DNA of 64,000 nucleotides from an uncultured Clostridia bacterium (GCA_965151315.1 CBCTZG010000002.1:25817-89816), one strand, 5' to 3'; counted from the stretch's first letter, positions 42,412-60,806 are shown. Made by a program: numbers and translations. Notes: generated from the sequence alone by a model not told the origin.

Positions 42412-42455
42412 GAAAAACCATGCACTGGTAAAATAAATTGAGGAGGAACGAAACG

Positions 42456-43844
42456 ATGCGGAGCCTTCAAAAAACGTTGGTTAGTTTTCTTTTATCTGCG
42501 GCAATGCTGATGACGGCAGCAGTACCGGCTGTATTGGCCGCCGAGGGCGATGCGGCTGCGGCGTTGAACGGGGCCGGGGATATCGTTGAAGTGCAGGCTG
42601 TTTTAGAGCAGTATGGCGATGAATTGGATCTGGATTTGGAAACCTTAAGTAAGATTTCCAAAAAAGACGCTGTTTATCAGGCTATGCTGGACGCGGAGTT
42701 CGCCACTGATGCAGACGTGCAGAAAATGTTTGCACAAGCGCTGGGTGAACAGGCGGCAGTGATTAAAAATATTGCCGTGGCAGACGCAAGGGTAGATTGG
42801 AACAATAATATTTTTAATGATAACGGCGGAGAAAACGACTGGGCGCCATACTTTATGATCAACCGGCTGGTATACACGGAAACCGTTCCTATGACCGCGG
42901 AAGGCGGCCAGTGGGGGACGATAGATCTGAAGACAGGGGCAAAAACACAAGGGGCAGATCCCTGGCTGTTTGTTCCGGGCTGGGCCCAGAGATATAACCA
43001 GGCCTACTTTACCTTTGACCAGACAGCCACTTATGGCAAGGAACATATTGTAGGCGCGCAAGCCAATCTCCGCCGTGGATATGAGGAAAGCGCCCAGGAC
43101 GGCGTTGCCCGTTATTTGCTGCTGTATGATGATACTGAAACCAGAAACGCCATCGGATTTAGTAATGACACAAAACAGCAGGGGGATATGATCCGGGCGG
43201 ATGTGACAGAATTGGTTAAGAATAACGATACGTTTACGATTTACGCGGCAGGCGCTGTGGACGGTGTGACAGCCGGCGGCAGTGCGCTGACAACACCGAA
43301 GGACGAAGGTCTGAAAGACAACGCGATGTTTTTAACGATATCTTATGACAAGCTGGCGTTTGCGAACGAGGTGGGCAAAGCCAGCAACGCGGAAGCTGCC
43401 CAGAGCTTGGTTGAAAATTACAGAACGATTCTGGGCATTCCGGAGGACGCGGATACAATGGCGTACGCGGTTGCGATGATGGGAACGGAGTTTACTTCTG
43501 CCGCGCAGCTGGAAAGCGTTTTCGAGCGGGCAGCGCTGCGGGAGGTTATGATTGCTGATGTAATGCCGCAGCCGGGACAAATCTCCAGAGGTTCAGTAAC
43601 AATCAGGAATTTGACGGCGGAGGTAAAGGATATTCAGGTCGTTGTAGCTGGATATAATGAAAACGGCCAGATGGTGGATTCCGTATTTTTGACGCTTGCG
43701 AATCCACAGCTGAACGGGTATACATCTGTCAGCGGCCTATATAGAATGTCCGCGGATAATATTGTGGAAATTAAAGCATTCTTATGGGATAGCTTAGAGT
43801 CCCTCCAGCCGCTGGACATGCCGGGCGTTTATCGTCAGCAATAA
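42456..43844 (+). CDS. Secreted protein of unknown function (ORF A, 462 aa): helical modules, beta-rich middle, and a C-terminal 'FLWD' module
   Basis: GAGGAGG lies 8 nt upstream of the ATG at 42456. Signal peptide 'MRSLQKTLVSFLLSAAMLMTAAVPAVLA'. I recognise no catalytic motif. Confidence 0.75.
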   Translation: MRSLQKTLVSFLLSAAMLMTAAVPAVLAAEGDAAAALNGAGDIVEVQAVLEQYGDELDLDLETLSKISKKDAVYQAMLDAEFATDADVQKMFAQALGEQAAVIKNIAVADARVDWNNNIFNDNGGENDWAPYFMINRLVYTETVPMTAEGGQWGTIDLKTGAKTQGADPWLFVPGWAQRYNQAYFTFDQTATYGKEHIVGAQANLRRGYEESAQDGVARYLLLYDDTETRNAIGFSNDTKQQGDMIRADVTELVKNNDTFTIYAAGAVDGVTAGGSALTTPKDEGLKDNAMFLTISYDKLAFANEVGKASNAEAAQSLVENYRTILGIPEDADTMAYAVAMMGTEFTSAAQLESVFERAALREVMIADVMPQPGQISRGSVTIRNLTAEVKDIQVVVAGYNENGQMVDSVFLTLANPQLNGYTSVSGLYRMSADNIVEIKAFLWDSLESLQPLDMPGVYRQQ

Positions 43845-43886
43845 TCGGATGTTTTGCGGCAAGCCGGGTTTATTAGGAGGATGAGC

Positions 43887-46800
43887 ATGAAGATGCAATA
43901 CAAAAAAATTACAGCATTGCTTTTGTCGGCTGCTATGCTGACAGCATGCCTGCCGGGAATCGCTTTCGGCCAGCAGACAGATCCTGTTCCGCTGGATATT
44001 AAAGCAGAAAATCAAATATCCGATGATTCTGTGCAGGACGGTAAAACGGAGTTACCGCTGACAGAAGAGGAGGACTGTGGGAAACCAGGGGGCCAGGCGC
44101 CTGCCCCTGCTGAATCTCCAGTACCGCCGGAAGAGCCGGAAGCAGAGCCAACACAGTCTGCAAAACCGGAATTAGAATCGGAACCGATTAGAAAAGTAAA
44201 ACCTATGCATGAGCAGACAGAGGCAGAGGTATACTCCGCCGATCAGATTGAGATCCAGCATCCAATGGCTGGAGATTTGATCCTGACGAGGGATGGAAAC
44301 GAGGACAATTTTAACGGCGCGGGTTCGCAGACCGGTACGCTGAAGCTGTTAACCAAGTTTGCGAAAACTGAAGATATTAACGTGGATCCGAAATATATTG
44401 TATCTGTCCAATATCATTTGACGCTGGATATGTGTGACGCTATGTTTGATCCGCAAACCTGGCATTTTTACATGACAGACGGAAACTGGCAGGAGTTCCA
44501 GGCTACATATGACTCCCTGGGAGACGCGGTCACGGATACGTCAAGAGAACTTCTTACGGAGGCGGCTTTTCTGCCGCTGTTTGACAACACCTTTGACATT
44601 ACCGATGGTTATAAGACATTGATTGATAAACAAGACGGTGATTTTGGTATCCGGGTAGACTTGGAACAATACGAAGCGGTTTTTAAGAACAATTCCAGTA
44701 CTGCGGACAATTATCTGACCTATACAATCGACCGCGGCGCAATTTGGGAAGATATAGAAAACGCGGCCGATTTAGATATGCTGGACAGCATGATCCTGAA
44801 AAACGGAGCGGCTGTTGGAATCAATACAGGGCTTTACCGGGCGGTTGCCGACCGGTCGGAAATGCTTGCGGAGATTGCCGGTCTGGAGAAGGTGACAGCG
44901 GAAACAGTAAATGAAGTGATTGCGGCAGCGGCCGATCAGGTACTGACGGCCCCGGTAATAATCCCAAATGACGGGAATATCTACCGGTATGAGACCGCGC
45001 CCCAACAAAACGCATCTGCTAAGCTGATCCGGCAAAGCGGCCAGAATATGGCCACAGAAAGTACCACAGCTTCCCGGTTTGTAGTGGCGTTTGATTTGGG
45101 GGATACACCGGCTGCCTCTGCGGCCGATGTTCAGTTTTCTATCCTGCGGGCCGCCAGCGGCGCAGAAGAAGGAACAATTCGAAACTTGACGGTTTCCGTG
45201 GCAGACTCTGCGGGAGAAAATGCGGATCCGCAGGATACACCGTTTTATTTGGACTTTGAACAGGCTCCGGTTGGCCTAGCCTCTCAGTCTAAAACGGAAA
45301 ATCCGTATGTAGAAATTACAGGGATGATTGATCCAGCAGCGGACAAGCTGTACGTTTCCCTTTTGGGAATTGATGACAGTGACCGATTATCCAATCAGGC
45401 TGTTCTGGCCGTTCGATACAATTTAACAGATATTTTTGCGATGATTGCCAAGGCATCTGTTGTAGAAACAATCAGCCTATTAACCCAATATGGCAGTGTG
45501 CTGGGCCTGCCAGAGGAAGACTTGACCGGAGATCGGCTTTTGAAGATTGCGTTAGGCGTATATGGCCGAACCATTGATAGTACAGACACGTTTTTGGCAA
45601 TGGCAGAAAATGCTGCAAATAATATGGGAAAAGCAGATATTTTAGGGGCCCTGAACCAAACGGCGGAAGAAGCTGCGTATGGAGAAGTGATATTGGCTTA
45701 CAGCGGGCTTTTAGAGGTACAAAATACGATGATTGCAAATCTGCCAATGGAGTATCAGAAGCAGGCCATTGCTGAAATTTTCCGTGGCGGCGAGGATTAT
45801 CATTCAGTTTCCGAACTGATCGCGGCGGTCCGCAAAGCAGCTGCCAAGCAATATAAGCTGCTTTTATCTGGCCTGGATGGTATTGATTATGCGGCGACTA
45901 AGGCATATCTCCAGGAGTGTGGAGAGGCTTTGGGGATTTCAGCGGAAGATCTCAGCACAAATATTGACAAGCTGACAATGGCGTACCTGATTGGAAGACC
46001 GATAACAGATATTTTAGAGTTTCAGGCCATTTACGCTGATTATGAAACCTATGCAAGCAATAATATTGTTGGTCTTTTAAACCGCAGTCAGAATGTGGAA
46101 GAGTTTGACGCCTTGCTTCACCAGTATCAGGAAGCGCTAGGCTTAGATTTACGGGTATATGACACCTTTGAAAATAAGGAAGGGATATATCTTTCCATGC
46201 GGGGCGCCGCAGATAATCCAGCGGATTTTGCAGTGCGGTTTGCGGAGGAATTGCAAAAATACCTGGCCCAGCCGCAGACAACCTATGCAATTGAAGAATC
46301 CTGGATTAAAACGGACAGAGACGATCCAAACTATGGTAACTGGAATGAAGAGTGGATGGGCAGAAAGGATGACGCAAGCCATCTGCTGAAATATGATTTA
46401 TCCGGGATTGCAATTGATCCACAGAAGCTGGTGAGCGCGACAGTCACGCTTTCGATTCCAGTTAGAAACGAAACGGCGGATGTTGCGGATACGACCTTTT
46501 ATCTGTACACACTGCGCAATGACTGGAAGGAGTCGACAGCAACGTATAAGCTGCTGGAAGAGCAGGGCTTCTTCGCAGAGCAGAAAATTGCGGGACAAGC
46601 GTATGAGGCCATGCTCCACGGCGGCGACAAAATTGTGATTGATATTACGGATTACATCATAGAGCAGGCACAGCAGGGTCAAATTGGGCAGTTGTCCTTC
46701 CAGTTTGCCGCTGTTAATCCAAACGGCGGCCTGATCATCACCCGCAAGGGTGACAGTGTGACATACGCGCCTATGGATTTGGTCTTTGCTGAGGGCGTTA

Positions 46801-47456
46801 GCTCAACGGTTAACTATACGCCGGCAGGAGGCAGCCAGAATGTGCCAGTTGATACCCAGGAAATTCTTATCCAATTTCCAAAGGCTGTGGATCCTGTCAC
46901 CATGACGGACAAGGCGGTAACCGTACAGGAAAATGGAACGGCGGTGTCCAACTGGACACTGCAGAGTGTAAACAGTACAACATATAAGATTGTATTTGAC
47001 TCCAGACTGGCATATGACACCACGTATACAGTAAGCCTGGCGAACAGTATTCAATATGCGGGCGATAGCGGGACTTACGTAATGAATGCATTATCGTTTA
47101 CTACAGAAAAGCAGCCGCTGGTATTTGGCGGAATGCAGGTTTATTCTGATGGCAAGCAGATTCAGCAGCTGTCGGAGCGGACCAGTGATACAGTAACAGT
47201 ATCTGCTCGAGTGGAGAATAACGGAGAGGAAACTCAGCCGGCGGCAATTACTTTGGCGCTGTATGCGGAGGAAAACGGAGTATGGCAGATGATTGCCGCG
47301 AAAGCTGTATCTGATGTAATTGATCTGGATGGCTATCTCCTGTGCGAAACAGATTTTGATATTCCTGATGCCCCGGGAATAACATATTCGATTGCATGCC
47401 ACGTGTGGGATTCCTATGAATCTATGAGTAGCATGTATTACGCGCGGATGCAGTAA
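43887..47456 (+). CDS. Giant secreted protein of unknown function (ORF B, ~1,190 aa): P/E linker, beta-sandwich modules, helical repeat modules, SbsA-type Ig domain, and a C-terminal 'VWD' module
   Basis: AGGAGG at 43875-43880. Signal peptide 'MKMQYKKITALLLSAAMLTACLPGIAFG'. The start is ambiguous (43881, 43887 or 43893). Confidence 0.75.
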   Translation: MKMQYKKITALLLSAAMLTACLPGIAFGQQTDPVPLDIKAENQISDDSVQDGKTELPLTEEEDCGKPGGQAPAPAESPVPPEEPEAEPTQSAKPELESEPIRKVKPMHEQTEAEVYSADQIEIQHPMAGDLILTRDGNEDNFNGAGSQTGTLKLLTKFAKTEDINVDPKYIVSVQYHLTLDMCDAMFDPQTWHFYMTDGNWQEFQATYDSLGDAVTDTSRELLTEAAFLPLFDNTFDITDGYKTLIDKQDGDFGIRVDLEQYEAVFKNNSSTADNYLTYTIDRGAIWEDIENAADLDMLDSMILKNGAAVGINTGLYRAVADRSEMLAEIAGLEKVTAETVNEVIAAAADQVLTAPVIIPNDGNIYRYETAPQQNASAKLIRQSGQNMATESTTASRFVVAFDLGDTPAASAADVQFSILRAASGAEEGTIRNLTVSVADSAGENADPQDTPFYLDFEQAPVGLASQSKTENPYVEITGMIDPAADKLYVSLLGIDDSDRLSNQAVLAVRYNLTDIFAMIAKASVVETISLLTQYGSVLGLPEEDLTGDRLLKIALGVYGRTIDSTDTFLAMAENAANNMGKADILGALNQTAEEAAYGEVILAYSGLLEVQNTMIANLPMEYQKQAIAEIFRGGEDYHSVSELIAAVRKAAAKQYKLLLSGLDGIDYAATKAYLQECGEALGISAEDLSTNIDKLTMAYLIGRPITDILEFQAIYADYETYASNNIVGLLNRSQNVEEFDALLHQYQEALGLDLRVYDTFENKEGIYLSMRGAADNPADFAVRFAEELQKYLAQPQTTYAIEESWIKTDRDDPNYGNWNEEWMGRKDDASHLLKYDLSGIAIDPQKLVSATVTLSIPVRNETADVADTTFYLYTLRNDWKESTATYKLLEEQGFFAEQKIAGQAYEAMLHGGDKIVIDITDYIIEQAQQGQIGQLSFQFAAVNPNGGLIITRKGDSVTYAPMDLVFAEGVSSTVNYTPAGGSQNVPVDTQEILIQFPKAVDPVTMTDKAVTVQENGTAVSNWTLQSVNSTTYKIVFDSRLAYDTTYTVSLANSIQYAGDSGTYVMNALSFTTEKQPLVFGGMQVYSDGKQIQQLSERTSDTVTVSARVENNGEETQPAAITLALYAEENGVWQMIAAKAVSDVIDLDGYLLCETDFDIPDAPGITYSIACHVWDSYESMSSMYYARMQ

Positions 47457-47474: not shown

Positions 47475-50400
47475 ATGAAAGCAGGTACCGCAGTAAAACT
47501 TGGACTACTGATTACAATTTTATTATTGCTTACCCCGGTAATCCATGGTTTTGCCGCTGTTGTCAATTCTGTGGACATACAGGGAGAAAAGCTGACGGTA
47601 CAGGGCAACCTTTCCCAGTATACCCCGGCGCAGATTGTGGGCGTATATATTTTAAAGGAAGGAAAAGCGCCTGCGGATATCGCTGGCGCGGCTCAGCCGG
47701 GAGATGTATTTGACCAGATTGGTATGGCGGCCGTAGACGATAACGGGAAATATACTTGTCAGCTGATATGCAGCGATACGTCGGAGAAGGGCAGTTTATA
47801 TGTAAAAAGCGGTGCGGAAGAAATTCTACTGCCGGTGGAAAATTATAAAAGTCCTGGCCGGACACTGTATGTCGCGCCGGATGGAAACGATCTGGCGCCC
47901 GGAACCAAGGACGAGCCTCTTGCCACATTGACCGGTGCCCGGGATCTAATCCGGGCCTGGCGGGCGGAGCGGGGCGAACTGCTAGAGGCGGTAACGGTAT
48001 ACATTATGCCCGGAGAATACCGCATGACGGAAACTGCCGTGTTTACCCGGGAAGACAGCGGAACGGCGGAATGCCCAATTACTTATCGGGCGTATGCGCC
48101 AGGAACGGTAACATTTAAGGGATCGGTGAAGCTGCCGGCGGAAGATTTCCGGCAGGTTACAGATCGGGAAACTTTACAGCGGCTGCCGATACAGGCGGCG
48201 GGCCGTGTATATCAAATGGATCTGGGAAACTACGGTATTACGCCGGACCAGGTGCAATTCAAGGATATCTGGGGCCGGGACGCCTTTTCACAGGCGGTAT
48301 CTCCGGCTGTTCCAGGCCTTTATTTAAACGGAAAACGGCAGGATATTGCCCGGTGGCCCAATGTGGGCTATGCGGATTTTAGTCTTCCCGATGGCTCCAG
48401 CGCTATTTTAGATCCAGGCGAGGAACAGGGCCGGGGAGCGGTATTCTATTTCCGGGAACCCAATCTGCAGCGGTGGATAACCGCTAAGGATATGTTTATT
48501 GATGGTTATCTGGCTGTGCAGTATGCGGGTGCGTATCGGCGGGTCAAAGCGATTGACCCGGAAGCAGAGACCATAGCCCTGGTAGGCGGCGTGATCGCCG
48601 GGCCGGAACGGCGGTGGACGGCAGTGAATCTTTTGGAGGAGCTGGATATGCCGGGTGAGTTTTATATTGACCGGGATAACATGCGGCTTTACTATTATCC
48701 TGCCTATGACCTGACCGAAACGGATGTATTAGAATATGCGGCCATGCAGACGCCGCTGATCCAGCTGGAGAATGTATCCTATATGCAGCTGCAGGATCTG
48801 GACTTTGCGCAGGTCTATGCCGCGGGTATCACAGGCAGCGGTATTGATCATATCCAGGTTTCCGACTGTGAAATTTCCTTTACGGCAGGACATGGAATTT
48901 GGTTTTCCGACGCAAGAAATACAGAGGTTACCGGCTGTACGGTTCATAATACTGGTGGGAACGGCATTGTAGTGGACACAAATACAACTCAGCAGGAGTT
49001 ATTTTCCCTGACGGCTTGCGGGAACCGGATAATCAATAACCATGTATATAACGTCAGCGATCAGGTACGGACAATGGGCTCTGGTATTAGCGGCAACGGC
49101 GTTGGACTTCTGATTCAGAACAACCTGGTGCATCTGAGTCCTAATATGGGCGCTAGCGGCGGCGGCGCGGAAAGCGAGGTCAGCTATAATGAGCTGTATA
49201 ACCTGATCCGGGATACTGCCGACGCCGGCGGCGTTTATATCGGCAGGACGCTGATCTCCTATGGGAACCGGTACGCGTTCAATTATATTCACGATATGGG
49301 GATCGAGGGATTTTTGGAAAACGAACATACCTCCGGAATTTTCTGGGATGATTTCCTAAGCGGCCAGACAGCGGAGAATAATATTATTGTCAATGATTAC
49401 CCGGGAACGGCTTATGGTATCAATATCAACGGCGGCCGGGATCTGCGGGTGAACGGGAACATTTTCGTCGGAATGGATTATGCCGTACGCAATACGGACC
49501 GGTCTAATCAGCCGGTGGATCAGGTGAACTTTATGCCGGAGATTGTAGAGGATTTAAAATGGGTTGCCGCGGCAGACTCCGAATATACCCGGAAATATCC
49601 GCAGATGGTCCAGACCTATCGAGAAATTCAGGAAGATGGAAAATTCAATCCAAAGAATATGGATTTTTCCGGAAACATCGTTTTTAACTGCCGGCAGGCT
49701 GCGGCTGAAAACGGCGGCGTATTTACAAACGGCAGAATCGCCGGCGAATTTTCGGATACAGTTAACATTGATAACTTTGTGACAAAGAATTCATCTATTT
49801 TTGTTGATCCAAAACAGGGAGATTACCGCCTGACGGAAGCCGGAAAAGCGGCGGCAGGATTGCAGGATTTCGTGTTGGACGAAGATTTTGATCTGGACAC
49901 AATTGGTTTCCAGGGAGTTGTTCCTTTAGGGGATGGTTTTCGGAAAACATATCCCCAAAATGGCGCGGCAGTCGGCGGTGGGATAACCCTGGCCTGGGAG
50001 CAGGCGCTGTTTGCGGATGAATACGTCTATACTGTATCGGAAAATCCGGATTTATCCGATCCGATATATCAGGGGATAACAATTTACCGGCATGCAGAGC
50101 TTTTCGGATTGGAGCCGGGCAAGACATATTATTGGAATGTTACGGCAAGGCATACTTCCCGGAAATTTGCCGGGGCGTGGGAAAGCGGTCCGGTTTATAG
50201 CTTTCGGACAACCACATGTCCCGTTCAGGTGCAGGATATGCAGGCAGAAGCTTCTGCCGATGCGCTGACGGTCACGATGCGGACATATAACGGAAGCGCA
50301 GAAGCGGCCGGAACCTTGCTGTTGGCAGGCTACCAGCCGGATGGAAGCCTGGCCGGGGTCACCGCAGCAAAAATCACAGTCCCTGCCGGCGCGGCGGCTA

Positions 50401-50510
50401 TACACGCTGTGGCGCGGGCTGTGCCGGAAGCTGTGGACTATACGGCGTTCCTATGGGATGGAATAGATACTATGCAGCCCCTTGGGGACTGTAAAATTTA
50501 TGTGAGGTAG
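47475..50510 (+). CDS. Secreted right-handed parallel beta-helix protein (ORF C, 1,011 aa); candidate polysaccharide hydrolase or lyase
   Basis: Signal peptide, then an Ig-like N-module, then 'LYVAPDGNDLAPGTKDEPLATL' and many short G/N-rich coils ('NTGGNGIVVD', 'NRIINNHVYN', 'LLIQNNLVH'). It continues with an Fn3-like 'YYWNVTAR' domain and a C-terminal 'FLWD' module. Confidence 0.75.
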   Translation: MKAGTAVKLGLLITILLLLTPVIHGFAAVVNSVDIQGEKLTVQGNLSQYTPAQIVGVYILKEGKAPADIAGAAQPGDVFDQIGMAAVDDNGKYTCQLICSDTSEKGSLYVKSGAEEILLPVENYKSPGRTLYVAPDGNDLAPGTKDEPLATLTGARDLIRAWRAERGELLEAVTVYIMPGEYRMTETAVFTREDSGTAECPITYRAYAPGTVTFKGSVKLPAEDFRQVTDRETLQRLPIQAAGRVYQMDLGNYGITPDQVQFKDIWGRDAFSQAVSPAVPGLYLNGKRQDIARWPNVGYADFSLPDGSSAILDPGEEQGRGAVFYFREPNLQRWITAKDMFIDGYLAVQYAGAYRRVKAIDPEAETIALVGGVIAGPERRWTAVNLLEELDMPGEFYIDRDNMRLYYYPAYDLTETDVLEYAAMQTPLIQLENVSYMQLQDLDFAQVYAAGITGSGIDHIQVSDCEISFTAGHGIWFSDARNTEVTGCTVHNTGGNGIVVDTNTTQQELFSLTACGNRIINNHVYNVSDQVRTMGSGISGNGVGLLIQNNLVHLSPNMGASGGGAESEVSYNELYNLIRDTADAGGVYIGRTLISYGNRYAFNYIHDMGIEGFLENEHTSGIFWDDFLSGQTAENNIIVNDYPGTAYGININGGRDLRVNGNIFVGMDYAVRNTDRSNQPVDQVNFMPEIVEDLKWVAAADSEYTRKYPQMVQTYREIQEDGKFNPKNMDFSGNIVFNCRQAAAENGGVFTNGRIAGEFSDTVNIDNFVTKNSSIFVDPKQGDYRLTEAGKAAAGLQDFVLDEDFDLDTIGFQGVVPLGDGFRKTYPQNGAAVGGGITLAWEQALFADEYVYTVSENPDLSDPIYQGITIYRHAELFGLEPGKTYYWNVTARHTSRKFAGAWESGPVYSFRTTTCPVQVQDMQAEASADALTVTMRTYNGSAEAAGTLLLAGYQPDGSLAGVTAAKITVPAGAAAIHAVARAVPEAVDYTAFLWDGIDTMQPLGDCKIYVR

Positions 50511-50519
50511 GATGATTCG

Positions 50520-53500
50520 ATGAAGAAAGTGCTGGTATTGATTCTAATATACGGCATGGTGCTGGGCGGGCTTCCGGCATATGCGGCAGACAGCGGGACA
50601 GACAACACAACTGTCCTGCATGTAAGCCCCAATGGCAGCGATACCAATCCGGGAACGGAAGACAGGCCGCTGGCGACCTTAGACGCCGCCCGCCGGATCG
50701 TCCGGGGTATGGCAAAGAAAGAGCCTATTGAGGTTCTGTTCCATGCGGGGGAATACCGGGTGAGCCAGACAGTATGGTTTGATTCCGGAGATGCCGGGAC
50801 AGAACAGGCGCCGATCACATATAAAAGCGCCGGGGACGGCGAAGTCATTTTTAACGGTGCAAAAATATTGGATATTTCGGCTTTCGAACCAGTTACGGAC
50901 CAAAAAATTCTGAAACGGCTGCCGGCTTCGGCAGTCGGACGGGTAGGACAGATGGATTTAGGTGCCCAGGGAATTACCCAGGATCAAATTATTTCGATCC
51001 ATACCCAGTGGAATCAGAATCCATACGAACAGTTCTGTACGCCGCAGATTCGGAACATCTACGTAAACGGCAGGGAACAGCAGCTGGCCCGGTGGCCCAA
51101 TAAGAATTTTTTATCCATCAGTAATGTAGTGTCGGACAATACGTTTGTCTACACGGAAACCAATCCCTCTAACTGGACGGAGGCAAAAGATGTATTTATT
51201 GCCGGATATATGTTCTCGGAGTGGGAAGGCGGCTGGGCGCAGATTGAGCGGATTGATCCGGCGAATAGAACAATTACCTTAAAAAACAGTTCCGTGTTGG
51301 CGAACCATCGCTGGTCAGCGGTTAATTTGCTGGAGGAGATGGATATTCCTGGGGAATGGTACGCGGATCGGGAAACGATGACTCTCTACTATTATCCGGA
51401 AAAGCTTTTAGAGCCGGGACGGGACGTTATGGAGCTGCCGGTTCTGCGGGACGCGTTTATCGGCATGACCCAGTGCCCCTATGTGAATTTTGAGGGGTTG
51501 ACCTTTGAGCGGGGCTACTGCGACGGTATTCGCAGCTATAATTCGGATCATGTGATCGTCCGCAACTGTGTTATGCGGGATCTGGCCGGAGCTGGCATTT
51601 ACAGTGATAATGGACGATACGCGCTGTTTGAGGATAATACCATTTATAATACAGGGATGCACAATATTTATTATAACTTTACCGATAGCCAGTCAGACAA
51701 GGACAACATTGTTCACACCGGTACAGTGATCCGCAACAATCACTGTTATAACGGTGCAAATCATGGTATTGGTATGAGCGCGGCCAATATTTCGTTCTCT
51801 GGGATCGGCACAGTGGTAGAAAACAATACCGTTCACCGGGGGATCAACAGCGGTATTATTGGCACAGGGCCGGAGTGCGCTGTCCGCTATAATGAGATTT
51901 ATAACATGGTTCGGGAATCTGCTGACGCCGGCGCTTATTACATGGGCCGGACTTGGACAAACTACGGGACAGATTTCTCCTATAATTACATCCACGACTT
52001 AGGTGACCGGGAATTTGACGCGGCTAACCTGGTGGACTGTGTATTCTGGGACGACGCGGCCAGTGGTCAGACGGCTAGATACAATATTATGTGGCCAAAC
52101 TCAAAAACAAGAACCTATGGCGTTATCAGCGGCGGCGGCCGGGATAATGATATTTCTTATAATATTATCGTAGATTCAGACCAGTCCATCGGTATGCAGG
52201 ACAGAACTACATATCTGACGGATGTAAAGACGGGATATTTCGACGGTGTGGCCTACAAGGGTCTGGAAGCTGCTGTGGCCACGTCGACGCCCTACAACCG
52301 GAAGTATCCGCAGATGTTAAAGACTTATCAGGAATTAGAGCAAACCGGGATATTTTATCCCAATAACAATACATTGATGCACAATGTGATCATCAATTCT
52401 GCGGACATCAACTACGCCAATGCCGTAAAGGATTCGCCCACCACCAAAGCGGAAGGGAATTATGTGGGTACCGGATATGACATTTTTGTGGATCCGGAGA
52501 ATCAGGATTTCCGGATTAAGAAGTCGGCTAAGGCAGAGCTTGGATTAGACGACGGTGTTTTGGACGAGGACTTTGACATTACCCAAATTGGCATGCAGCG
52601 GGAAATGATAGATGTAGACCGGAGCTTTGCCAAGACCTATCCCCGCAACGGCGATTCCGGCCTGAACGCTGCGAATGTAACCCTTTCCTGGCAGCAGTCA
52701 GCCTTTGCCGACGAATATGTGTATGAGGTTGCTACCGATCCAGACTTTAACAATATTGTCCGGACAGGAACAACCATCTATACCAACACGGAAATAGAAA
52801 ATTTGGAAAAAGACACCAATTATTACTGGCGTGTGAAGGCAAAAACGATTTCGAGGGCATTTCCAAGCGAAACGGAATCAGAGGACGTTCCATTCCTGTT
52901 TAAAACAGCGGCGTACGACATTTTAGTAACGGATAATTTAAAGTCTGCCGTGGAGAAAGCGGAACTCTTTGCGGAATCCATTACAGAGGGCGAAGAACTG
53001 GGACAGTATAAGCCGGGGACAAAGGACGCGCTGAACACGGCAATTGCGTCCGCGGACGCAATTTTAAAAATGACCAGCGGTCAGCAGGCAACCATCAACA
53101 ATGCAGAATTAGACTTAAACGCGGCGCTGGAGCAGGCCAAATCCTCCATTAACGTAGGATATATGGGAACGATTGACACATCACCGGAGTCAGAATGGGT
53201 AACACAGCAGCCGGATCATATCCAAATTACCCGGGAGGACGGCGGCGTAACAGTGACCCGGGCTTCTACAGAGGGCATGGCGGCTTCCGGTGTGGAATAC
53301 CCCAGCTATGGCATTTATCAATTCCAGATCAAGGCAAGCCTGGGAGACGGCTGGTGCGCTGTGGGCATGCGGCACTCCAACATCAATAGCCATCAGATTT
53401 ATTATTCTGAAGATAATAAACTGAATAACTACTTTATCATAATCAAAAAGGATGCCTTCGAGCTGCAAAGCCGAAACTCTGATAATGTAGGCGCGACCGT

Positions 53501-54683
53501 TATGGTATCTGCCCCGAACAATGGTATATTTAAAGAAAACGAGTGGAACGACATTGAGATGGGCATGATTCCGGCAGGCAAAGGGAATCTTTGTTTAGTC
53601 AAGATCAACGGGCAGGCGGTATTCAGTTATTTAGATGAAGCCAATCCAGTCCGGGCAGAGGGGAGAATTTCCTTGCAGCCGGCGGACGGCTCCTGGATTT
53701 CCATTCGGTCGGCAGAGAACGCAAAGACCGGACCATATACGCCGCCGGAAGAACTTCTTCAAAGTGATGAGGGCTTACCCATTTACTATACAACTGAATC
53801 TCCGGAGTATACTGAATCCGGTACATGGGCAGTAGATGATCAAAAAGGTTATCAGGATATGGCATCACGTTCTACGAAGGAGACCGGTGCTTATGCCCAG
53901 TTCAGCCTAAAGCCGGCCGATGAGATCAGAACCTATCGCGTTTCGTATTATCATGTCCCCGGCGAGGATAATGATCCGGCAGCGTCCGTTTATTTCCGGA
54001 ACCTGTATACCAGCTATACCCGGAAATTGGATCTCACCAAGGGAGAAGCCGGCTGGATAGAGCTGGGGGTTTTTAACTTTGCCAATGAAGCGGCAAAGGG
54101 TGTTATGGATATCCAATTTACTGCCGGCGGACAGGGAACCATGCGGATATCTGCACTAAAGATTGAGCAAGTAGAAGAATCTATGCGGGAATTTTCCGAA
54201 GTGTTTACGCTGCACGCGAAAAACGCGTTGCTTTTAAAGGCCGGTGACAATCGGGCGTTTAAAGATATCAGCGAATATACGCTGGACACGGCACCAACGA
54301 TTTTAAACGGACGGACGCTGATCCCGCTTCGGTTTGTATCAGAAGCCTTTGACACGCAGGTGGATTGGCAGCCGGATACCCGGGCGGCAACAATTCAGAC
54401 GAGTGATAAGCAGATTATATTTCAGGCGGACAGCCGAACATATACAGATGGTGGCAGCACCATGACCTTAGATCAACCGCCGGTGATCCAAGAAGACCGG
54501 ATGATGGTTCCTCTGCGGGCCTTGGCGGAAGCTTTGGGTAACCAGGTGATGTGGGATGACCGGTATCAGCTGATTTTAATTGCGAAAGAGTTCCAGTTTG
54601 AGGAACAGAACAAAGAAAAGATATTCGACGTCTGCAATGCGGCATTTATGCAGACGGAAAATGGAGGGGCAAATGAAACGTAA
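50520..54683 (+). CDS. Secreted right-handed parallel beta-helix protein (ORF D, 1,387 aa), a paralog of ORF C with a long multi-domain tail ending in a Cu-amine-oxidase-N-like domain
   Basis: Signal peptide 'MKKVLVLILIYGMVLGGLPAYA', then 'LHVSPNGSDTNPGTEDRPLATL'. It is colinear with ORF C through the Fn3-like domain. The tail ends 'ILNGRTLIPLRFVSEAF...MMVPLRALAEALG'. Confidence 0.75.
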   Translation: MKKVLVLILIYGMVLGGLPAYAADSGTDNTTVLHVSPNGSDTNPGTEDRPLATLDAARRIVRGMAKKEPIEVLFHAGEYRVSQTVWFDSGDAGTEQAPITYKSAGDGEVIFNGAKILDISAFEPVTDQKILKRLPASAVGRVGQMDLGAQGITQDQIISIHTQWNQNPYEQFCTPQIRNIYVNGREQQLARWPNKNFLSISNVVSDNTFVYTETNPSNWTEAKDVFIAGYMFSEWEGGWAQIERIDPANRTITLKNSSVLANHRWSAVNLLEEMDIPGEWYADRETMTLYYYPEKLLEPGRDVMELPVLRDAFIGMTQCPYVNFEGLTFERGYCDGIRSYNSDHVIVRNCVMRDLAGAGIYSDNGRYALFEDNTIYNTGMHNIYYNFTDSQSDKDNIVHTGTVIRNNHCYNGANHGIGMSAANISFSGIGTVVENNTVHRGINSGIIGTGPECAVRYNEIYNMVRESADAGAYYMGRTWTNYGTDFSYNYIHDLGDREFDAANLVDCVFWDDAASGQTARYNIMWPNSKTRTYGVISGGGRDNDISYNIIVDSDQSIGMQDRTTYLTDVKTGYFDGVAYKGLEAAVATSTPYNRKYPQMLKTYQELEQTGIFYPNNNTLMHNVIINSADINYANAVKDSPTTKAEGNYVGTGYDIFVDPENQDFRIKKSAKAELGLDDGVLDEDFDITQIGMQREMIDVDRSFAKTYPRNGDSGLNAANVTLSWQQSAFADEYVYEVATDPDFNNIVRTGTTIYTNTEIENLEKDTNYYWRVKAKTISRAFPSETESEDVPFLFKTAAYDILVTDNLKSAVEKAELFAESITEGEELGQYKPGTKDALNTAIASADAILKMTSGQQATINNAELDLNAALEQAKSSINVGYMGTIDTSPESEWVTQQPDHIQITREDGGVTVTRASTEGMAASGVEYPSYGIYQFQIKASLGDGWCAVGMRHSNINSHQIYYSEDNKLNNYFIIIKKDAFELQSRNSDNVGATVMVSAPNNGIFKENEWNDIEMGMIPAGKGNLCLVKINGQAVFSYLDEANPVRAEGRISLQPADGSWISIRSAENAKTGPYTPPEELLQSDEGLPIYYTTESPEYTESGTWAVDDQKGYQDMASRSTKETGAYAQFSLKPADEIRTYRVSYYHVPGEDNDPAASVYFRNLYTSYTRKLDLTKGEAGWIELGVFNFANEAAKGVMDIQFTAGGQGTMRISALKIEQVEESMREFSEVFTLHAKNALLLKAGDNRAFKDISEYTLDTAPTILNGRTLIPLRFVSEAFDTQVDWQPDTRAATIQTSDKQIIFQADSRTYTDGGSTMTLDQPPVIQEDRMMVPLRALAEALGNQVMWDDRYQLILIAKEFQFEEQNKEKIFDVCNAAFMQTENGGANET

Positions 54684-56390
54684 AACATGGATCCTAATCA
54701 CACTCATATGCATACTTCACGGGGCGGCTGCCCAAGCTGCCGAGGTGGTGTTAGACGATATTGCCGAAGGTATCGTAAAAGTAAGCGGCTACGGCCAGGC
54801 CGCCGGGGAGCAGGTGAATCTGGTTGTGCTGAACCCAGGCGCGGAACTGGGTGAGGCTGGCAACGACGCCGCCCTGTCCCAGTATGTCGATGCGGTTCCT
54901 GTCGCAGAAGACGGGAGCTACAGCGCGAAATCCAGTTAGAAGGCACAGCTGGGCAGTCCGGCACGTATGATATTTATGTGCGGGAGCCGGGCGACAGCGC
55001 ACCTGTCCAATTTTCGGTCTATTGGGCCTCAGCGGACGAAATGATTCAGGCGGCTAAAGCGATTGTAGAAAATCAGGACACGGCTTCGATCCAGCAAGGG
55101 AAAAAAGCCCTGGCACTGGATATAGACCTAATCAACAAAACAGACCTAAACCTGACCGCACAGCATTTTGCCCGGTATTTGCAGGAAAACCCAATTCTAT
55201 TCGACGGTAACAATGACTTGCAAAAGGCAGCAGAAGTGCAGAGCCAGCTCAAGGCTTGCGCCCTGTTGGCGGCATACAATAAGGGAATTTCCGAATTGGC
55301 CTTTTTAAACGACGGACAGTTCCGCTATAACGAAATTACCAATATGACAGGCATGGATCAGGAATATGATATTACGGCCTATAGTCTGTACAGCACTAAG
55401 CTGAGTGACACGGGGAAAAAGCTGGTGCGGGATGGGCTCCTCGGCATAAATGCGGAGGGTCTGACAGACGTTAAGCGTCAGTTTACGGATCTTGTTCTGT
55501 ATTATGGAATCGGCAATCATGCGGTAGCTGGTTATAACCATGTGTCCGAATACATTACAGAGGCCAATGTCCGATTTGCGGAAAATGTGGACAAGGATCA
55601 AAATCCGGTAAAAACATACCTGGGGCTGACAAATCCGTCCAGTGTAAACGCTGAGATCGTACGGAATTACGGCCAAATGACATTGGAAAATTATAAAGCA
55701 AAGATTGAAGAATTGGCGAAAGGAAGCAGCGGTAATGATCCGGCGCCGGGCGGCGGCAGCGGAGGATCATCGGGCGGTGGCAGCAGCCCGTCTGCCGGAA
55801 ATGGAATTTTTGCGCCGAATACTGGCGATAAAGCGGATCCTACGCCGGAGCAGCAGCCCGAAGGTGCTTTTACGGATATGCAGAATGCCCAGTGGGCAAA
55901 AGAAGCGGTTGAAGCCTTGGCAGCGCGAGGGGTAATCAACGGCTACGGTGACGGCCGGTTCGGGCCGGGGGATTTTTTAACCCGGGAGCAGGCTGCAAGA
56001 ATTATTTGCACATATTTTGAAATACCAACCAGCGATGGCGCAAATACCGGTTTTTCTGATGTGGATGCGGATGCCTGGTATGCACCGTATGTGGCCGGTG
56101 CAAAGGACGCTGGTGTTTTATACGGCGTCCAGGAGAATCAATTCGGAATAGGCGCCGAGATTACAAGACAAGACCTGGCTGTATTAATTTATCGAGCTTT
56201 AGGCGAACCGGCCCCAGCGGCGGAAGCAATGTTTACAGATATGGATGAAATTGCGGATTACGCTAAACCAGCGGTATTGTATTTGAAGGAACAGGGGATA
56301 ATTAACGGCTATGAAGACGGCACTTTCTTGCCGGGACATTTTGTGACCCGGGCAGAAACTGCGCAGATGCTTTTTGGGATTTCCAGATAG
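54673..56390 (+). pseudogene. SLH-anchored surface protein (ORF E) split by an apparent 1-nt deletion near 54928-54933; intact length would be ~572 aa
   Basis: ORF 54673-54939 (signal peptide plus half an Ig-like module) stops at TAG. The 0-frame is open from 54855 and continues the same module ('IQLEGTAGQSGTYDIYVREPG') into ORF 54978-56390, which ends in three SLH repeats. Confidence 0.7.
55867..56387 (+). other. Three tandem SLH (S-layer homology) repeats at the C-terminus of ORF E
   Basis: 'FTDMQNAQWAKEAVEALAARGVINGYGDGRFGPGDFLTREQAA', 'FSDVDADAWYAPYVAGAKDAGVLYG...ITRQDLA' and 'FTDMDEIADYAKPAVLYLKEQGIINGYEDGTFLPGHFVTRAETA'. Confidence 0.85.
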
Positions 56391-56403: not shown

Positions 56404-59334
56404 ATGAAAAAGTTAGTATCGCTTTTCCTGGCTTTGGGAATCTTGCTTGGCGGAATGCCAATAATCCAGGCTGGTGCGGTGGAAGACGTACCGAACCAGA
56501 AGGCTATAGACCTTGTCACCGGATTAGGGCTGATGACGGCGGATGAGGAAGAAGGCTTCCAGCCAGACAGTACCGTTGCCCGTTCGGAAATGGCTATAAT
56601 TATTGAGCGGATTTACCGCTTTGACGAAGAAAAGGCAGAGGATATTTGGGAATTTTATGGAACCACTGAAAATGTATTGCTGACCCCAGAGGAGGGAGGA
56701 CAGGCATCTGTTTTTGCGGATGTAACCCCCGGGAATCCAGCTTATAACGCCATTGCATTTGCAGCAATGCAGGGAATCATGGTGGGTACCGGACCGGATC
56801 GATTTGAACCAGAACGGGAATTGACGAACCAGGAGGCACTGAACGTATTGGTCAATCTGTTGGGCTATAAAGTCCAGGCGCAGATGCAGGGTGGTTATCC
56901 GAATGGATATCTGCAGACAGCTGCACAGATTGGGCTCGTAACAGGCAGCCCAGAAGAGCCCATTATAAAAGGAAAGCTGGCGGCCTTGCTTGCCAAAACG
57001 CTGGATAGTGACCTGATGCAGACATCTATTGTCAACGGCGGGATTCACTATGCGGTGGCACAGGACTGCACTGTGCTGTCAGAAATCATGGGGATTACGA
57101 ATATTACCGGACAAATCAAACAAAACGGTGTGACTTCACTGACTGGGGAAAGCGATCTTGCGCCGGAAGGGCTGCAGGTGGAAAACACCCGGCTGCTGAC
57201 TACCACGCAGACAGCTTACGCGGCGGAATGGATCGGCCGGAATGTGGACTGCTACTATAAATCCCAGAACACGGAGGACGAATACACTGTGGTGTATTGC
57301 GCACTGTCGGAGAAGGACACGAGCGTGACATTTCCCATAGGTGATTTTGTTTCTTATGACGGAACAAAAATTATCTATGAAACAGAAACAAAAAATGTAT
57401 CGAAACCAATTCTAAACGGAGCATATGTGATTTACAACGGATTAGCTGCGGGCGAACTGCCATCTGCATATTTTGATTATGAAGATGGTACCGTAACGCT
57501 GGTTGCTTCGGATAATGGGGCACAGTATGATATTGTGATCATTAACGGTTATGAAAACTGGTATGTCAGCAGTGTTGACACTACCGATGCGGATAGTGTA
57601 ATTCTGACCAATAAAATTAAAGATTCCCGGCCGGATACAGACGACGTGCAGTTGGCGCTTCCGTATGAGGATTTTGGAAAAACAATATCGATTGTGGATA
57701 AAAACGGCGCGGCAATGGAATTGGATCAGTTGACACCCAATATGGCGGTAGATGTATCCAGAAATGGAAATGTGATCCGGCTTCGGGTTTCTGAAGACCG
57801 AATCAGTGACTTTAAGATTCAGTCTATTGACACCGAAGAGGGGATCCTTTCCGACGGCGAGCTGGAATATGAACTATCCCAGGCTTTTCTGGACTGCACA
57901 GAACGGGAGCAATACCAGGTGGGGCAGGCCTATACGCTGTGTTTAAACAGCTTCGACCGGATTGTCTGGATGGAAGGCGCCGGGACAGACGATTCTGTAC
58001 GGTTTGGCTATGTGATGAATTTTAAGAATTATGAAGAAGAAGAAAAAATTGTAGCAAAAATCTGTACAGCAGACAAGACATTCCAGAATTTTTATTTGGC
58101 AGATAAAATCAAGCTCAGCGATAACCGTGGGAATGACAACAAGCGTGTAGAAGCGTTGAATGTTTTCGGGATTCTACAGGAGTTTGACAACAGTGTAATC
58201 CGATATAAACTGAACAGTGAGGATGTAATTACAGAAATTGAATTGCCGCTGGATCCGGATGTGAAGACAAATAAGCTTGATCGGCTGTATACCATGGTGA
58301 TCAGTGACGAATCCAATAAGGCCGATTATTCTTATTCCCAGAACCAGTACACGTTTGGTGCAAAGGTTTTCATCAGCGCTGCGGGAACACAGGTTTTGAG
58401 CGTACCGGCTGACATAACAGATCAGTCCAAATACAGGTTTATCAGTCCGGACGATATTACCAACGGCGAATGGAGCTTTAAAGCTTATGGCACCAACAAG
58501 CGGTCTGTTTTGGCAAAATTCCTCTGCCTGTCCGGTTCAGTATCCACAGCGCTCGGAGACCAGAATTATCCGGTGGTTGTTACAGATGTCGATATGCTGT
58601 TGGATGAGAATGATGAAATTGTAACGAAGATTTCGATTTTCCGGCAGGGGAAGGACGAGGTCATCTATGACAGCGCGGAAAACGATTTTGTGCATAAAGC
58701 GCTGCCTCGGACTTTGAACCAAAACACTGCTGCAGAAGATGATTATCTAACGATTTCCCCGGGAGATATAATCCGGGTAGCTACGGATTCCAGCGGGTAT
58801 ATCAGCTTTGTGGAAATGCTGTTTGACGCCGATGCCGTATATGACAATTCCAAGTATTCCGATTATTTTGCAGGAAGAGACTCCTTTGACGAAGAGTTTA
58901 CTTGGGAGCAGACCGGTATGCTGGCCGGAACTGTTGGATATTACGCCAATGATATTCAGAATACCAATCCATTGGCATCTCAGTTTGTAGGCGTAACCTC
59001 CAGCAATCTTGCCAACCGATTTGATTACGGTGTGCCCCGGTTTATTCTGGGCTATGTTTACGATATGCAGGATGGCTATATCACCTATACAACCCAGAAT
59101 ATTATGGAGTCCAGTTATGATCCGAACAACAGCAAGTTTGTTACAGAAAGCCGGAATATGGACTTTGTAACTACGTTGGTTGACCTGAGCGGTAAAAAGG
59201 TTACCGCTAGAACGGGAACGGCCAATGATATCCGTACCTATCAGGATTTCCCCAAAAGCTGCTCCAGGGTTTTAGTGATGACAGCTTCCGCGGATAAACG
59301 GTTTATGTTTATTATTAACGGAGAAATCAAGTAA
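56404..59334 (+). CDS. SLH-domain surface protein (ORF F, 976 aa): N-terminal SLH triplet plus ~750 aa of beta-rich sequence of unknown function
   Basis: GGGAGG RBS. Signal peptide 'MKKLVSLFLALGILLGGMPIIQAGA'. SLH-like 'FADVTPGNPAYNAIAFAAMQGIMVGTGPDRFEPERELTNQEA'. I recognise nothing in the remainder. Confidence 0.75.
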   Translation: MKKLVSLFLALGILLGGMPIIQAGAVEDVPNQKAIDLVTGLGLMTADEEEGFQPDSTVARSEMAIIIERIYRFDEEKAEDIWEFYGTTENVLLTPEEGGQASVFADVTPGNPAYNAIAFAAMQGIMVGTGPDRFEPERELTNQEALNVLVNLLGYKVQAQMQGGYPNGYLQTAAQIGLVTGSPEEPIIKGKLAALLAKTLDSDLMQTSIVNGGIHYAVAQDCTVLSEIMGITNITGQIKQNGVTSLTGESDLAPEGLQVENTRLLTTTQTAYAAEWIGRNVDCYYKSQNTEDEYTVVYCALSEKDTSVTFPIGDFVSYDGTKIIYETETKNVSKPILNGAYVIYNGLAAGELPSAYFDYEDGTVTLVASDNGAQYDIVIINGYENWYVSSVDTTDADSVILTNKIKDSRPDTDDVQLALPYEDFGKTISIVDKNGAAMELDQLTPNMAVDVSRNGNVIRLRVSEDRISDFKIQSIDTEEGILSDGELEYELSQAFLDCTEREQYQVGQAYTLCLNSFDRIVWMEGAGTDDSVRFGYVMNFKNYEEEEKIVAKICTADKTFQNFYLADKIKLSDNRGNDNKRVEALNVFGILQEFDNSVIRYKLNSEDVITEIELPLDPDVKTNKLDRLYTMVISDESNKADYSYSQNQYTFGAKVFISAAGTQVLSVPADITDQSKYRFISPDDITNGEWSFKAYGTNKRSVLAKFLCLSGSVSTALGDQNYPVVVTDVDMLLDENDEIVTKISIFRQGKDEVIYDSAENDFVHKALPRTLNQNTAAEDDYLTISPGDIIRVATDSSGYISFVEMLFDADAVYDNSKYSDYFAGRDSFDEEFTWEQTGMLAGTVGYYANDIQNTNPLASQFVGVTSSNLANRFDYGVPRFILGYVYDMQDGYITYTTQNIMESSYDPNNSKFVTESRNMDFVTTLVDLSGKKVTARTGTANDIRTYQDFPKSCSRVLVMTASADKRFMFIINGEIK
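56485..56950 (+). other. SLH repeat region at the N-terminus of ORF F
   Basis: There are three degenerate SLH-like units. The second is the clearest. The first and third, 'GFQPDSTVARSEMAIII' and 'GGYPNGYLQTAAQIGLVTG', are weaker. Confidence 0.65.
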
Positions 59335-59361: not shown

Positions 59362-59404
59362 AAAAAGCCTCCTATGGTAAAGTGATAACATAGGAGGTTT
59401 TTTT
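59362..59404 (+). terminator. Rho-independent terminator ending the ~20-kb plus-strand gene string
   Basis: Stem CCTCCTATG / CATAGGAGG (59368-59376 / 59389-59397), flanked by an A-run and T7. This is the first convincing terminator downstream of 39055. Confidence 0.8.
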
Positions 59405-59483
59405 ATAAAAATTAATAAAAGAGGTAGATTTTTAAATCCTATTATGGTAAAATAAAACAAAAAATGAAGGTGGGATTTTGCAT

Positions 59484-60806
59484 ATGCATGAATATTTTAA
59501 AACAGTACCAAAAATCCAATACGAAGGGGCGGCGTCGAAGAACCCCTTTAGCTTCAAGCACTACAACCCAGAGCAGATTGTTGCCGGCAAGCCCATGCGG
59601 GAGCAGCTGAAATTTGCCATGAGTTATTGGCATACCCTTTGCGGCGATGGGACAGACATGTTTGGCCGGGGGACGATGGATAAGACCTTCGGCGGGAAAA
59701 CACCTATGGAAATTTATGAAAATAAGGCGTATGCCGCCTTTGAGCTGATGGATAAGTTGCAGATTGAATATTTCTGCTTCCACGATCGGGATATTGCCCC
59801 GGAAGGGGAGACTTTGGCGGAATGCAACGCCAACCTGGATAAAATCGTGCCGCTATTAAAAGAGCTGATGGGAAAATACAACAAAAAGCTTTTGTGGGGG
59901 ACTGCCAACTGCTTTAATAACCCACGGTATGTGCATGGCGCAGGAACTGCCTGCAGCGCGGATGTGTTCGCTTATGCCGGTGCGCAGATCAAAAAAGCCA
60001 TTGAGACTACAGTCGCCCTGGGCGGCCAGGGGTATGTGTTCTGGGGCGGCCGGGAAGGCTATGAGACCCTTTTGAATACAGATATGGGCCTGGAGCTGGA
60101 TAATATGGCCCGGCTTTTGCAGATGGCGGTGGATTATGCCCGGAAGATCGGCTTTACTGGGGATTTCTATATTGAACCAAAGCCGAAAGAGCCCACGAAG
60201 CATCAATATGACTTTGATGTGTCTACAGTGCTGGGATTCCTGCGTAAATATGGTCTGGACAAGGATTTCAAAATGAATATTGAGGCCAACCATGCCACAT
60301 TAGCGGCCCATACATTCCAGCACGAGCTGCGGGTAGCCCGAATAAACGGCGCGTTTGGTTCCATTGACGCAAACCAGGGCGACATGCTCCTGGGCTGGGA
60401 TACGGACCAATTCCCGACCAATATTTACGATACATCGCTGTGTATGTATGAGGTATTCAAGGCCGGCGGCTTTACCAATGGCGGCCTGAACTTTGATGCC
60501 AAGGTCCGCAGGGGATCCATGACGGACGAGGATATTTTCCTGGCCTATATTGCCGGTATGGACGCGTTTGCCCTGGGGTTAAAGGTGGCGGATAAGCTGA
60601 TCCAGGACGGCCGGATTGACGAATTTGTACGGAATCGATACGCAAGCTTTTCTGCGGGTATTGGCGCGAAGATCCAGGCGGGCAGCGTCAGCCTGGAAGA
60701 GCTGGAGCAGTATGTGCTGGAAAAAGGTGATGTTCAGGAGCAGGGCAGCGGAAAGCAGGAATATCTGGAATCTGTCATCAATGAGATTATGTTCGCGGGG
60801 GTATGA
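59484..60806 (+). CDS. xylA: Xylose isomerase
   Basis: '[12 protein letters not shown]', 'FCFHDRD', 'WGGREGY', '[18 protein letters not shown]', '[18 protein letters not shown]' and 'GSIDANQGD'. The start is the ATG at 59484, after GAAGGTGGG. Confidence 0.95.

Follow-up and report, generated by a model that had tools for sequence, protein, structure and literature searches.

This work concerns two adjacent genes, referred to here as C and D, on the plus strand of a 64,000-nucleotide (nt) stretch of DNA from an uncultured Clostridia bacterium (the window; all positions are counted from its first letter). C (47475..50510) encodes a protein of 1011 amino acids (aa) and D (50520..54683) a protein of 1387 aa, with an intergenic gap of 9 nt between them. 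In our best explanation, the two proteins are divergent beta-helix enzymes of the type grouped in glycoside hydrolase family 141 (GH141): secreted, multidomain hydrolases that would act at the cell surface through a pair of aspartates and feed the transporter encoded in the same operon. Based on sequence comparison and structure prediction, we assign this explanation as a whole a probability of roughly 70%; hydrolase activity, endo-action, surface localization, and the nature of the substrate are the parts of it that we infer.

Fold, sequence relationships, and candidate catalytic residues

Both C and D pass the threshold of the Pfam model Beta_helix (PF13229). For C, an AlphaFold2 (AF2) model was built on a profile of 44 homologous sequences (profile A1); it has a predicted local distance difference test score (pLDDT) of 89.8, a predicted template modeling score of 0.85, and a right-handed beta-helix core. 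When this model was compared to the Protein Data Bank (PDB) with Foldseek, using a library of entries released by April 2026 that does not include 9rx2, the top four matches were all chains of 5mqp, the GH141 enzyme BT_1002 (E values of 2e-23 to 4e-22). The superpositions have target-normalized template modeling (TM) scores of 0.64-0.66 over ~660 aligned columns, at 18% identity. The next match, at an E value of 7e-14, was 3vst, the GH120 beta-xylosidase XylC. This enzyme is also a beta-helix with an N-terminal cap similar to that of C, but it is clearly more distant than GH141: with profile A1, significant alignment is confined to the N-terminal cap (profile positions 26-125), and the superposition on the model of C gives a target-normalized TM of 0.52 with a root mean square deviation of 9.9 Å.

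Sequence comparison leads to the same family. Single-sequence searches of the PDB retrieved only 5mqp (E values of 2e-12 for C and 5e-9 for D) and 9rx2 (3e-10 and 1e-8, respectively). Profile A1 matched 9rx2 over its full length (residues 3-716) with an E value of 1.6e-85 and 291 bits, followed by 5mqp at 1.5e-37 and GH120 3vst at 2.5e-10, with the remainder at 2.5e-10 or weaker. The sequence of 9rx2 was rebuilt from the profile alignment and then used as a query. The protein is WP_132215995.1 of Mariniflexile fucanivorans (P0247). It shares 77% identity with P0259 of Wenyingzhuangia fucanilytica, and ANW96099.1, the sequence of Wf141_2, belongs to the 90% cluster of P0259. Wf141_2 is a characterized GH141 endo-1,4-alpha-L-fucanase (PMC12786026). 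As such, 9rx2 is an orthologue of Wf141_2, and the full-length match of profile A1 falls on a lineage that is bona fide GH141. Literature searches for 9RX2 and for accessions of relatives turned up the Wf141 paper alone and no paper citing 9rx2, and a search for a new family near GH141 returned nothing relevant.

Pairwise comparison with phmmer places this relationship within the known breadth of the family. C and D score 32-44 bits against Wf141_2 or 9rx2 and about 45-56 bits against fragments of BT_1002. Wf141_2 itself reaches about 40 bits (about 11+30) against the BT_1002 fragments, and members of the core clade around C and D (P0020, P0034, and P0082) score 83-105 bits against Wf141_2. 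In the CAZy database, family GH141 unites the Wf141 enzymes with BT_1002 and Xyn141E, two proteins that are 20.7% identical (PMC5593877). Since the core clade is closer to Wf141_2 than Wf141_2 is to BT_1002, C and D lie within the sequence space of GH141 as CAZy draws it. In addition, both proteins give a sub-threshold match to the Pfam model GH141_M (PF21231) at the motif NLLEE(L/M)D(M/I)PGE..LYYYP, with 16.3 bits for C (aa 383-409) and 19.0 bits for D at a cutoff of 27; these matches span only the last ~30 profile positions. Wf141_2 (21.6 bits) and 9rx2 (23.6 bits) are bona fide GH141 proteins that also fall below the cutoff, at the same positions, and the weak match in C and D is therefore no counter-evidence to GH141.

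An earlier reading of the window made from the sequence alone (the sequence-only reading) had taken C and D for beta-helix carbohydrate-active enzymes (CAZymes), possibly of an unclassified family, and had suggested comparing an AlphaFold model by Foldseek. The first part, with C and D as CAZyme candidates, is borne out by PF13229, by the right-handed beta-helix core of the AF2 model of C, and by the GH141 matches. The second part is not supported. The profile match to 9rx2 and the structural match to BT_1002, which came out best when the suggested comparison was run for C, amount in essence to the confident match to a characterized glycoside hydrolase (GH) that the reading itself had named as speaking against a new family.

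The activity of BT_1002 needs D523 as the nucleophile and D564 as the acid/base (PMC10154630, PMC12786026). These residues carry chain indices 528 and 569 in 5mqp (a constant offset of 5) and align with the columns "tdDaGA" and "ylDD" of profile A1; through the profile alignment, their equivalents are D583 and D625 in C and D469 and D511 in D. On the plus strand, the codon of the putative nucleophile of C, Asp583 in DTADAGG, occupies 49221..49223, and that of the putative acid/base, Asp625 in FWDD, occupies 49347..49349. The corresponding codons of D are those of Asp469 in ESADAGA (51924..51926) and Asp511 in FWDD (52050..52052). Among 248 family sequences from many phyla, the column equivalent to D523 holds 238 D and 5 E, and that equivalent to D564 holds 243 D (96-98% Asp in the two columns); in the helix core, ~20 further polar or Gly positions hardly vary. 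BT_1002 and the Wf141 enzymes also have the His of NYIHD. DTADAGG, NYIHD, and FWDD had been proposed from the sequence alone as candidate active-site elements, and their alignment with the GH141 blocks agrees with that proposal.

The conserved aspartates also bear on two other accounts of C and D. Proteins of the pectate-lyase-fold superfamily include polysaccharide lyases (PLs) and C5-epimerases, and both A1 and Foldseek do retrieve such proteins: alginate lyases, PL6, and rhamnogalacturonan lyase appear as weak profile matches (E values of 1e-6 to 1e-3), AlgG/AlgE epimerases and lyases appear among the Foldseek matches (1e-4 to 1e-6), and a Pel9A-like Pfam model matches the N-terminal cap with 14.5 bits against a threshold of 25.2. 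These matches lie 15-30 orders of magnitude below those to GH141, their TM scores are 0.2-0.5, and they span generic turns of the beta-helix or the cap only; for the beta-helix lyases as a set (PL6, PL9, the rhamnogalacturonan lyase 5olq, and alginate lyases), A1 aligns short stretches only, at E values of 1e-6 to 0.1. The near-invariant residues, moreover, are the two aspartates in register with the catalytic pair of GH141, so that a lyase or epimerase function appears highly improbable. Alternatively, C and D could be non-catalytic surface proteins, such as adhesins or S-layer-associated glycan binders, for which the beta-helix is a scaffold. The many Ig-, FN3-, and lectin-like modules described below and the genetic linkage to SLH-domain proteins would suit such a role. 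Against it stand the Asp dyad and the ~20 core positions, near-invariant in the 248 sequences, the retention of the dyad by both old paralogues, and the co-transcription of the genes with a sugar importer; we regard a non-catalytic role as scarcely credible. We rejected all three readings (lyase, epimerase, and pure adhesin) in view of how strong the matches were and where they fell, and of the invariance of the Asp dyad.

A compact clade and the case against a GH141 assignment

GH141 is very diverse, and few of its members have been characterized: BT_1002, Xyn141E, and four Wf141 enzymes, two of which have been studied in detail. The known activities are alpha-L-fucosidase, endo-xylanase, and endo-fucanase. 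BT_1002 (5mqp), the founder of the family, is the Bacteroides thetaiotaomicron alpha-L-fucosidase that releases 2-O-methyl-xylose-alpha1,3-L-fucose from rhamnogalacturonan II. It shares the catalytic Asp pair and apparently an inserted beta-sandwich domain with C and D, but it is periplasmic, is exo-acting or disaccharide-releasing, and has a pocket; it ends ~55 residues past the second Asp, whereas C runs ~190 more. Wf141_2 and 9rx2 have in common with the family of C and D the N-terminal cap, an NxLExLDxPGEW motif, the Asp pair, an NYxHH motif, and an extension of roughly 170-190 aa past the second Asp. Unlike C and D, they are single-module lipoproteins of ~720 aa from marine Flavobacteriia and act on sulfated fucan; no sulfatases lie near C and D within the window. 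Xyn141E (Cthe_2195) of Acetivibrio thermocellus is a modular, extracellular GH141 endo-xylanase with a CBM6 and a dockerin (PMC5593877). It resembles C in coming from the Clostridia and in having ~190 residues from D577, the second of its catalytic Asp, to the module that follows (PMC5593877), but it is anchored via its dockerin and not via SLH partners. No A. thermocellus protein was among the matches listed in the profile search of the protein database.

The clearest difference from these enzymes concerns two insertions. The first carries the active-site residue that is a Gln in BT_1002 (Q336) and Xyn141E (Q356) and a Trp in Wf141_1/2/4 (PMC12786026). It is 46 aa long in BT_1002, about 21-26 aa in 9rx2 and Wf141_2 (..LQHDWDMLD), and 0 in C, D, and nearly all of their close relatives. 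The second, which precedes the first catalytic Asp, comprises about 9 aa in BT_1002 and about 40 aa in 9rx2 and Wf141_2. Both also occur in distant, GH141_M-positive matches (P0086-P0092). Xyn141E probably has the loops as well, to judge by published residue numbers (PMC12786026, PMC5593877): the distance from Q356 to D540 is 184 residues, near the 187 of BT_1002, compared to ~138 in the compact clade.

Several observations weigh against our explanation. Both insertions are missing, as judged by alignment, from C, D, and about 235 of their close relatives, which form a compact clade without a characterized member; with the loops missing, the active-site architecture must differ from that of the characterized enzymes. 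In pairwise comparison, C and D are only marginally similar to any characterized GH141 protein (32-56 bits; E values of 1e-6 to 1e-12), only the N-terminal cap aligns significantly in the single-sequence PDB searches, and an NCBIfam scan of C and D gave no model matches. Context adds two further points: the CAZymes that flank orthologous gene cassettes vary, so that the context in the window says little about the substrate, and the xylose isomerase (xylA) and GH3 genes lie behind a terminator and are neighbors, not members, of the operon.

From the same observations one could argue that C and D represent a separate, unclassified GH family, one that would share a beta-helix clan with its sister GH141. 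The low phmmer scores to BT_1002, Wf141_2, and 9rx2 and the sub-threshold GH141_M matches would fit this, as would the absence from the clade of both loops found in BT_1002, 9rx2/Wf141_2, P0086-P0092, and apparently, from literature spacing, Xyn141E. The clade is also large and coherent, with >150 representatives above 770 bits. However, CAZy has already joined BT_1002 and Xyn141E in GH141 at 20.7% identity and added the Wf141 enzymes, and the core clade stands nearer to Wf141_2 than Wf141_2 does to BT_1002. The dyad, the conserved His, and the N-terminal cap are all common to GH141, as the inserted domain appears to be, Wf141_2 itself fails the GH141_M threshold, and the Gln/Trp loop is a trait of the characterized members rather than CAZy's criterion for the family. 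In addition, surveys based on dbCAN report GH141 in Pirellulales and Armatimonadota, two groups that hold this clade. We therefore judge a separate family to be unlikely and retain the GH141-type assignment.

To gauge family size, 1.84 billion cluster representatives were searched by profile. At an E value of ≤1e-30, 12,900 representatives were retrieved, a count that takes in GH141 broadly defined; each of the best 150 scores >770 bits against the profile. Hosts of the clade include metagenome-assembled genomes (MAGs) of Clostridia, Paenibacillus, many Actinobacteria, and MAGs of the PVC phyla and Armatimonadota. C and D thus stand for a large clade with a simplified active-site region that is abundant in Clostridia, Paenibacillus, Actinobacteria, and PVC phyla. 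Characterizing one member would probably reveal a new specificity and improve the annotation of proteins now labeled "right-handed parallel beta-helix repeat-containing." The value of such work would be incremental enzymology, with no surprise in kind, and the loop-less active site and the gene cassette described below are its worthwhile subjects.

Paralogy and domain architecture of C and D

BLASTP aligns C131-932 with D33-822 colinearly over 818 columns, with 300/818 identities (37%), 54% positives, and an E value of 3e-166, a similarity far beyond chance. The sequence-only reading had described C and D as colinear over ~850 aa, had quoted shared blocks, and had called the duplication old. 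The alignment reproduces the colinearity and contains every quoted block, and phylogeny upholds the age: C-type and D-type proteins form separate clades, each with orthologues in two loci (L001 and L002) of the Clostridia MAG GCA_034101885.1. In a bootstrapped neighbor-joining (NJ) tree built on 635 columns of the catalytic module, the C clade (P0002-P0008 with the C proteins of the window, L001, and L002) has a bootstrap value of 76, the D clade (P0009 with the D proteins of the window, L001, and L002) has 81, and the sister grouping of both has 53. The catalytic Asp dyad is kept in both paralogues. C and D are thus ancient tandem paralogues that have been retained together with different accessory modules. 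Long retention and differing modules are compatible with possible sub-functionalization.

Tandem or local duplication has occurred independently several times in Clostridia, as the members of two further pairs are mutual closest relatives in the NJ tree: those of L004 (3209-7555 and 10001-13063) and L074 (9908-12412 and 12430-15054), with bootstrap values for the two pairs of 74 and 98. In three other top-scoring proteins, P0103 (1513 aa), P0104, and P0105, the catalytic profile matched two or three separate stretches, which together score 1033-1571 bits, above most single-module matches. Each of these proteins may carry two catalytic modules on one chain, a fused counterpart of the tandem pair.

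C begins with a signal peptide visible in the translation (aa 1-27), followed in the AF2 model by an N-terminal Ig-like beta-sandwich (about aa 30-125). The predicted GH141-type catalytic module (47859..49919, plus strand; about aa 129-815), delimited by the profile matches to 9rx2 and 5mqp, the Foldseek match to 5mqp, and the sub-threshold GH141_M match, comprises three parts: an N-terminal cap with LYVAPDGNDLAPGT..PLATL, a beta-rich insertion, and the beta-helix core. The inserted domain spans about aa 212-410 and ends in the motif NLLEELDMPGEFY..LYYYP in the AF2 model. An FN3-like domain follows at about aa 820-912, and the protein closes with a beta-sandwich of ~95 aa (50223..50507, plus strand; aa 917-1011) ending in ..FLWDGIDTMQPL.., which was recognized from AF2 strands and from a hidden Markov model (HMM) of three C termini. 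The same C-terminal module is common to the proteins of the two preceding genes, A (module at 43545-43841) and B (module at 47140-47453). It ends with WD(S/G)..(S/T)(L/M), in the form ..FLWD....QPL in A and C and ..HVWDSYESMSSM in B. A Pfam scan of this module gave no match; the HMM also matches the C-orthologue of L002 (E value of 8e-7). The module might serve in assembly or anchoring.

D likewise begins with a signal peptide visible in the translation (about aa 1-23), which precedes a GH141-type catalytic module (plus strand, about aa 31-700) and then five accessory domains, all on the plus strand. The first two, at 52632..53141, are an FN3-like beta-sandwich (aa 705-796) and a three-helix FIVAR-like bundle (aa 805-874), assigned from weak Pfam fn3 and FIVAR matches and AF2 secondary structure. 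The third is a concanavalin-A-like (lectin/glucanase) beta-jelly-roll (53157..53711; aa 880-1064) identified from the AF2 model and Foldseek. As Foldseek gave mostly meaningless long alignments with the multidomain C-terminal half of D, only domain-sized matches to this jelly-roll were used, namely, the legume-lectin domain 7elv (target-normalized TM of 0.51) and 2uwb, which has the GH16 fold; the domain is probably carbohydrate binding. A linker that is disordered in the AF2 model separates it from a Golvesin_C-like beta-sandwich (53793..54173; about aa 1092-1218), which rests on a sub-threshold Pfam match (PF25275, 20.7 bits) and AF2 strands. The last domain is a Cu_amine_oxidN1 "stalk" (54180..54653; aa 1221-1378; Pfam PF07833, E value of 3.4e-30), which has a pLDDT of >90 in a model of the C-terminal half whose overall pLDDT is moderate (74). 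The stalk is kept in the D-orthologues P0009, P0012, L001, and L002. Elsewhere in the window, a YkuD L,D-transpeptidase gene (12713-14149, minus strand) encodes the same stalk domain; the combination hints that the domain is cell wall related in the host organism.

Operon, conserved cassette, and proposed role

The operon runs from 39046 to 59334 on the plus strand, in the order of two ABC permeases, a DUF3502 protein, A, B, C, D, E, and F. It starts with the two permease genes (39046-40005 and 40015-40905), followed by a solute-binding protein with DUF3502 (40942-42411). A (468 aa) and B (1200 aa), both secreted, occupy 42438..47456; B carries CBM96/DNRLRE and Big_5 domains, and a family scan of A gave no match. 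Gene E (54673..56390), which starts with an ATG inside the last 11 nt of D, encodes a secreted protein that carries three SLH domains at its C terminus, and gene F (56404..59334) encodes a secreted protein of 976 aa with an N-terminal SLH domain. Spacing is 9-36 nt throughout, or overlapping. A terminator-like hairpin follows F on the same strand at 59367..59403 (CCUCCUAUG..CAUAGGAGG, then U7; ΔG of -20.2 kcal/mol, z of -5.7). The hairpin was seen by eye and by folding; a consensus terminator scan missed it because of its 12-nt loop. The short gaps, the D/E overlap, and the presence of a terminator only after F indicate a single operon.

E is interrupted in the window. The ATG at 54673 opens a signal-peptide ORF that runs to a TAG at 54937-54939, and a 470-aa ORF continues in another frame. 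The break is a -1 frameshift in an A-run near 54928-54939; an extra A in "gcgAAAtcc" (54928-54930) would join the two ORFs into a protein of ~572 aa, and the orthologues that follow D measure 564 aa in L001 and 566 aa in L002. The break reflects either a mistake in the assembly or a genuine frameshift.

In GCA_034101885.1, the gene order C-D-E-F is seen at two loci, L001 and L002, and it is partly repeated in L004, L005, L006, L031, L053, and L074. Genes like E and/or F stand beside family members in L004, L006, L031, L053, and L074. F-like genes in particular adjoin family members in L001, L002, L004, L006, L031, L053, and L074, and F is thus a conserved partner of the beta-helix enzymes. The flanks of the two complete cassettes differ from those in the window and from each other: GH42-like and FGE-sulfatase/heparinase II/III-like genes lie beside L001, and a pectate-lyase/RHGA-like gene lies beside L002.

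In the mechanism that we propose, C and D would be retained close to the wall along with E and F, the SLH proteins, and would hydrolyze a complex extracellular glycan at the cell surface through Asp/Asp acid-base catalysis, with the catalytic pair predicted to sit on adjacent turns of the helix. The loss of the pocket-forming loops leads us to speculate that the enzymes are endo-acting. Released oligosaccharides would be imported by the ABC transporter of the operon, and neighboring gene products (the GH29 fucosidase, the beta-xylosidase-like GH3, the GH78 rhamnosidase, and xylose isomerase) could trim them inside the cell. A plant or host heteroglycan containing xylose, fucose, or rhamnose is our guess for the substrate, made only from the neighboring genes and the known GH141 activities.

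A more far-reaching interpretation is that the compact clade constitutes a functionally distinct GH141 subfamily, or a GH141 sister family, with a new substrate specificity and that, in gut Clostridia, its members are perhaps part of a non-cellulosomal, S-layer-tethered, multiprotein assembly for glycan degradation. In such an assembly, A, B, and C would be joined by their common C-terminal module, D would contribute its stalk, and E and F would serve as SLH anchors. We consider this interpretation tentative and somewhat doubtful. The C-D-SLH-SLH cassette offers a testable model for the display of surface glycanases by non-cellulosomal gut Clostridia.

Downstream of the hairpin, the xylose isomerase gene (xylA; E value of 4e-194 to 1a0e) and the GH3 gene occupy 59478-62701, and the nine best PDB relatives of the GH3 protein are all beta-xylosidases. 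These two genes were considered as operon members and rejected, given the hairpin and U-run right after F. A bidirectional terminator of 19-20 bp at 62707-62749 is common to the end of the GH3 gene and the convergent GH78 rhamnosidase gene. Upstream of the operon lie a divergent AraC-type response regulator, a histidine kinase, and the GH29 alpha-L-fucosidase (34567-35874, minus strand). Farther outside the operon, a GH116-like protein is encoded at 15791-18415 (minus strand). The region of 1-34 kb otherwise holds housekeeping genes, among them a class I aminoacyl-tRNA synthetase (Ile/Leu/Met/Val type), ArgRS, Ddl, a Mur ligase, and RecD2, which indicates that the window is chromosomal.

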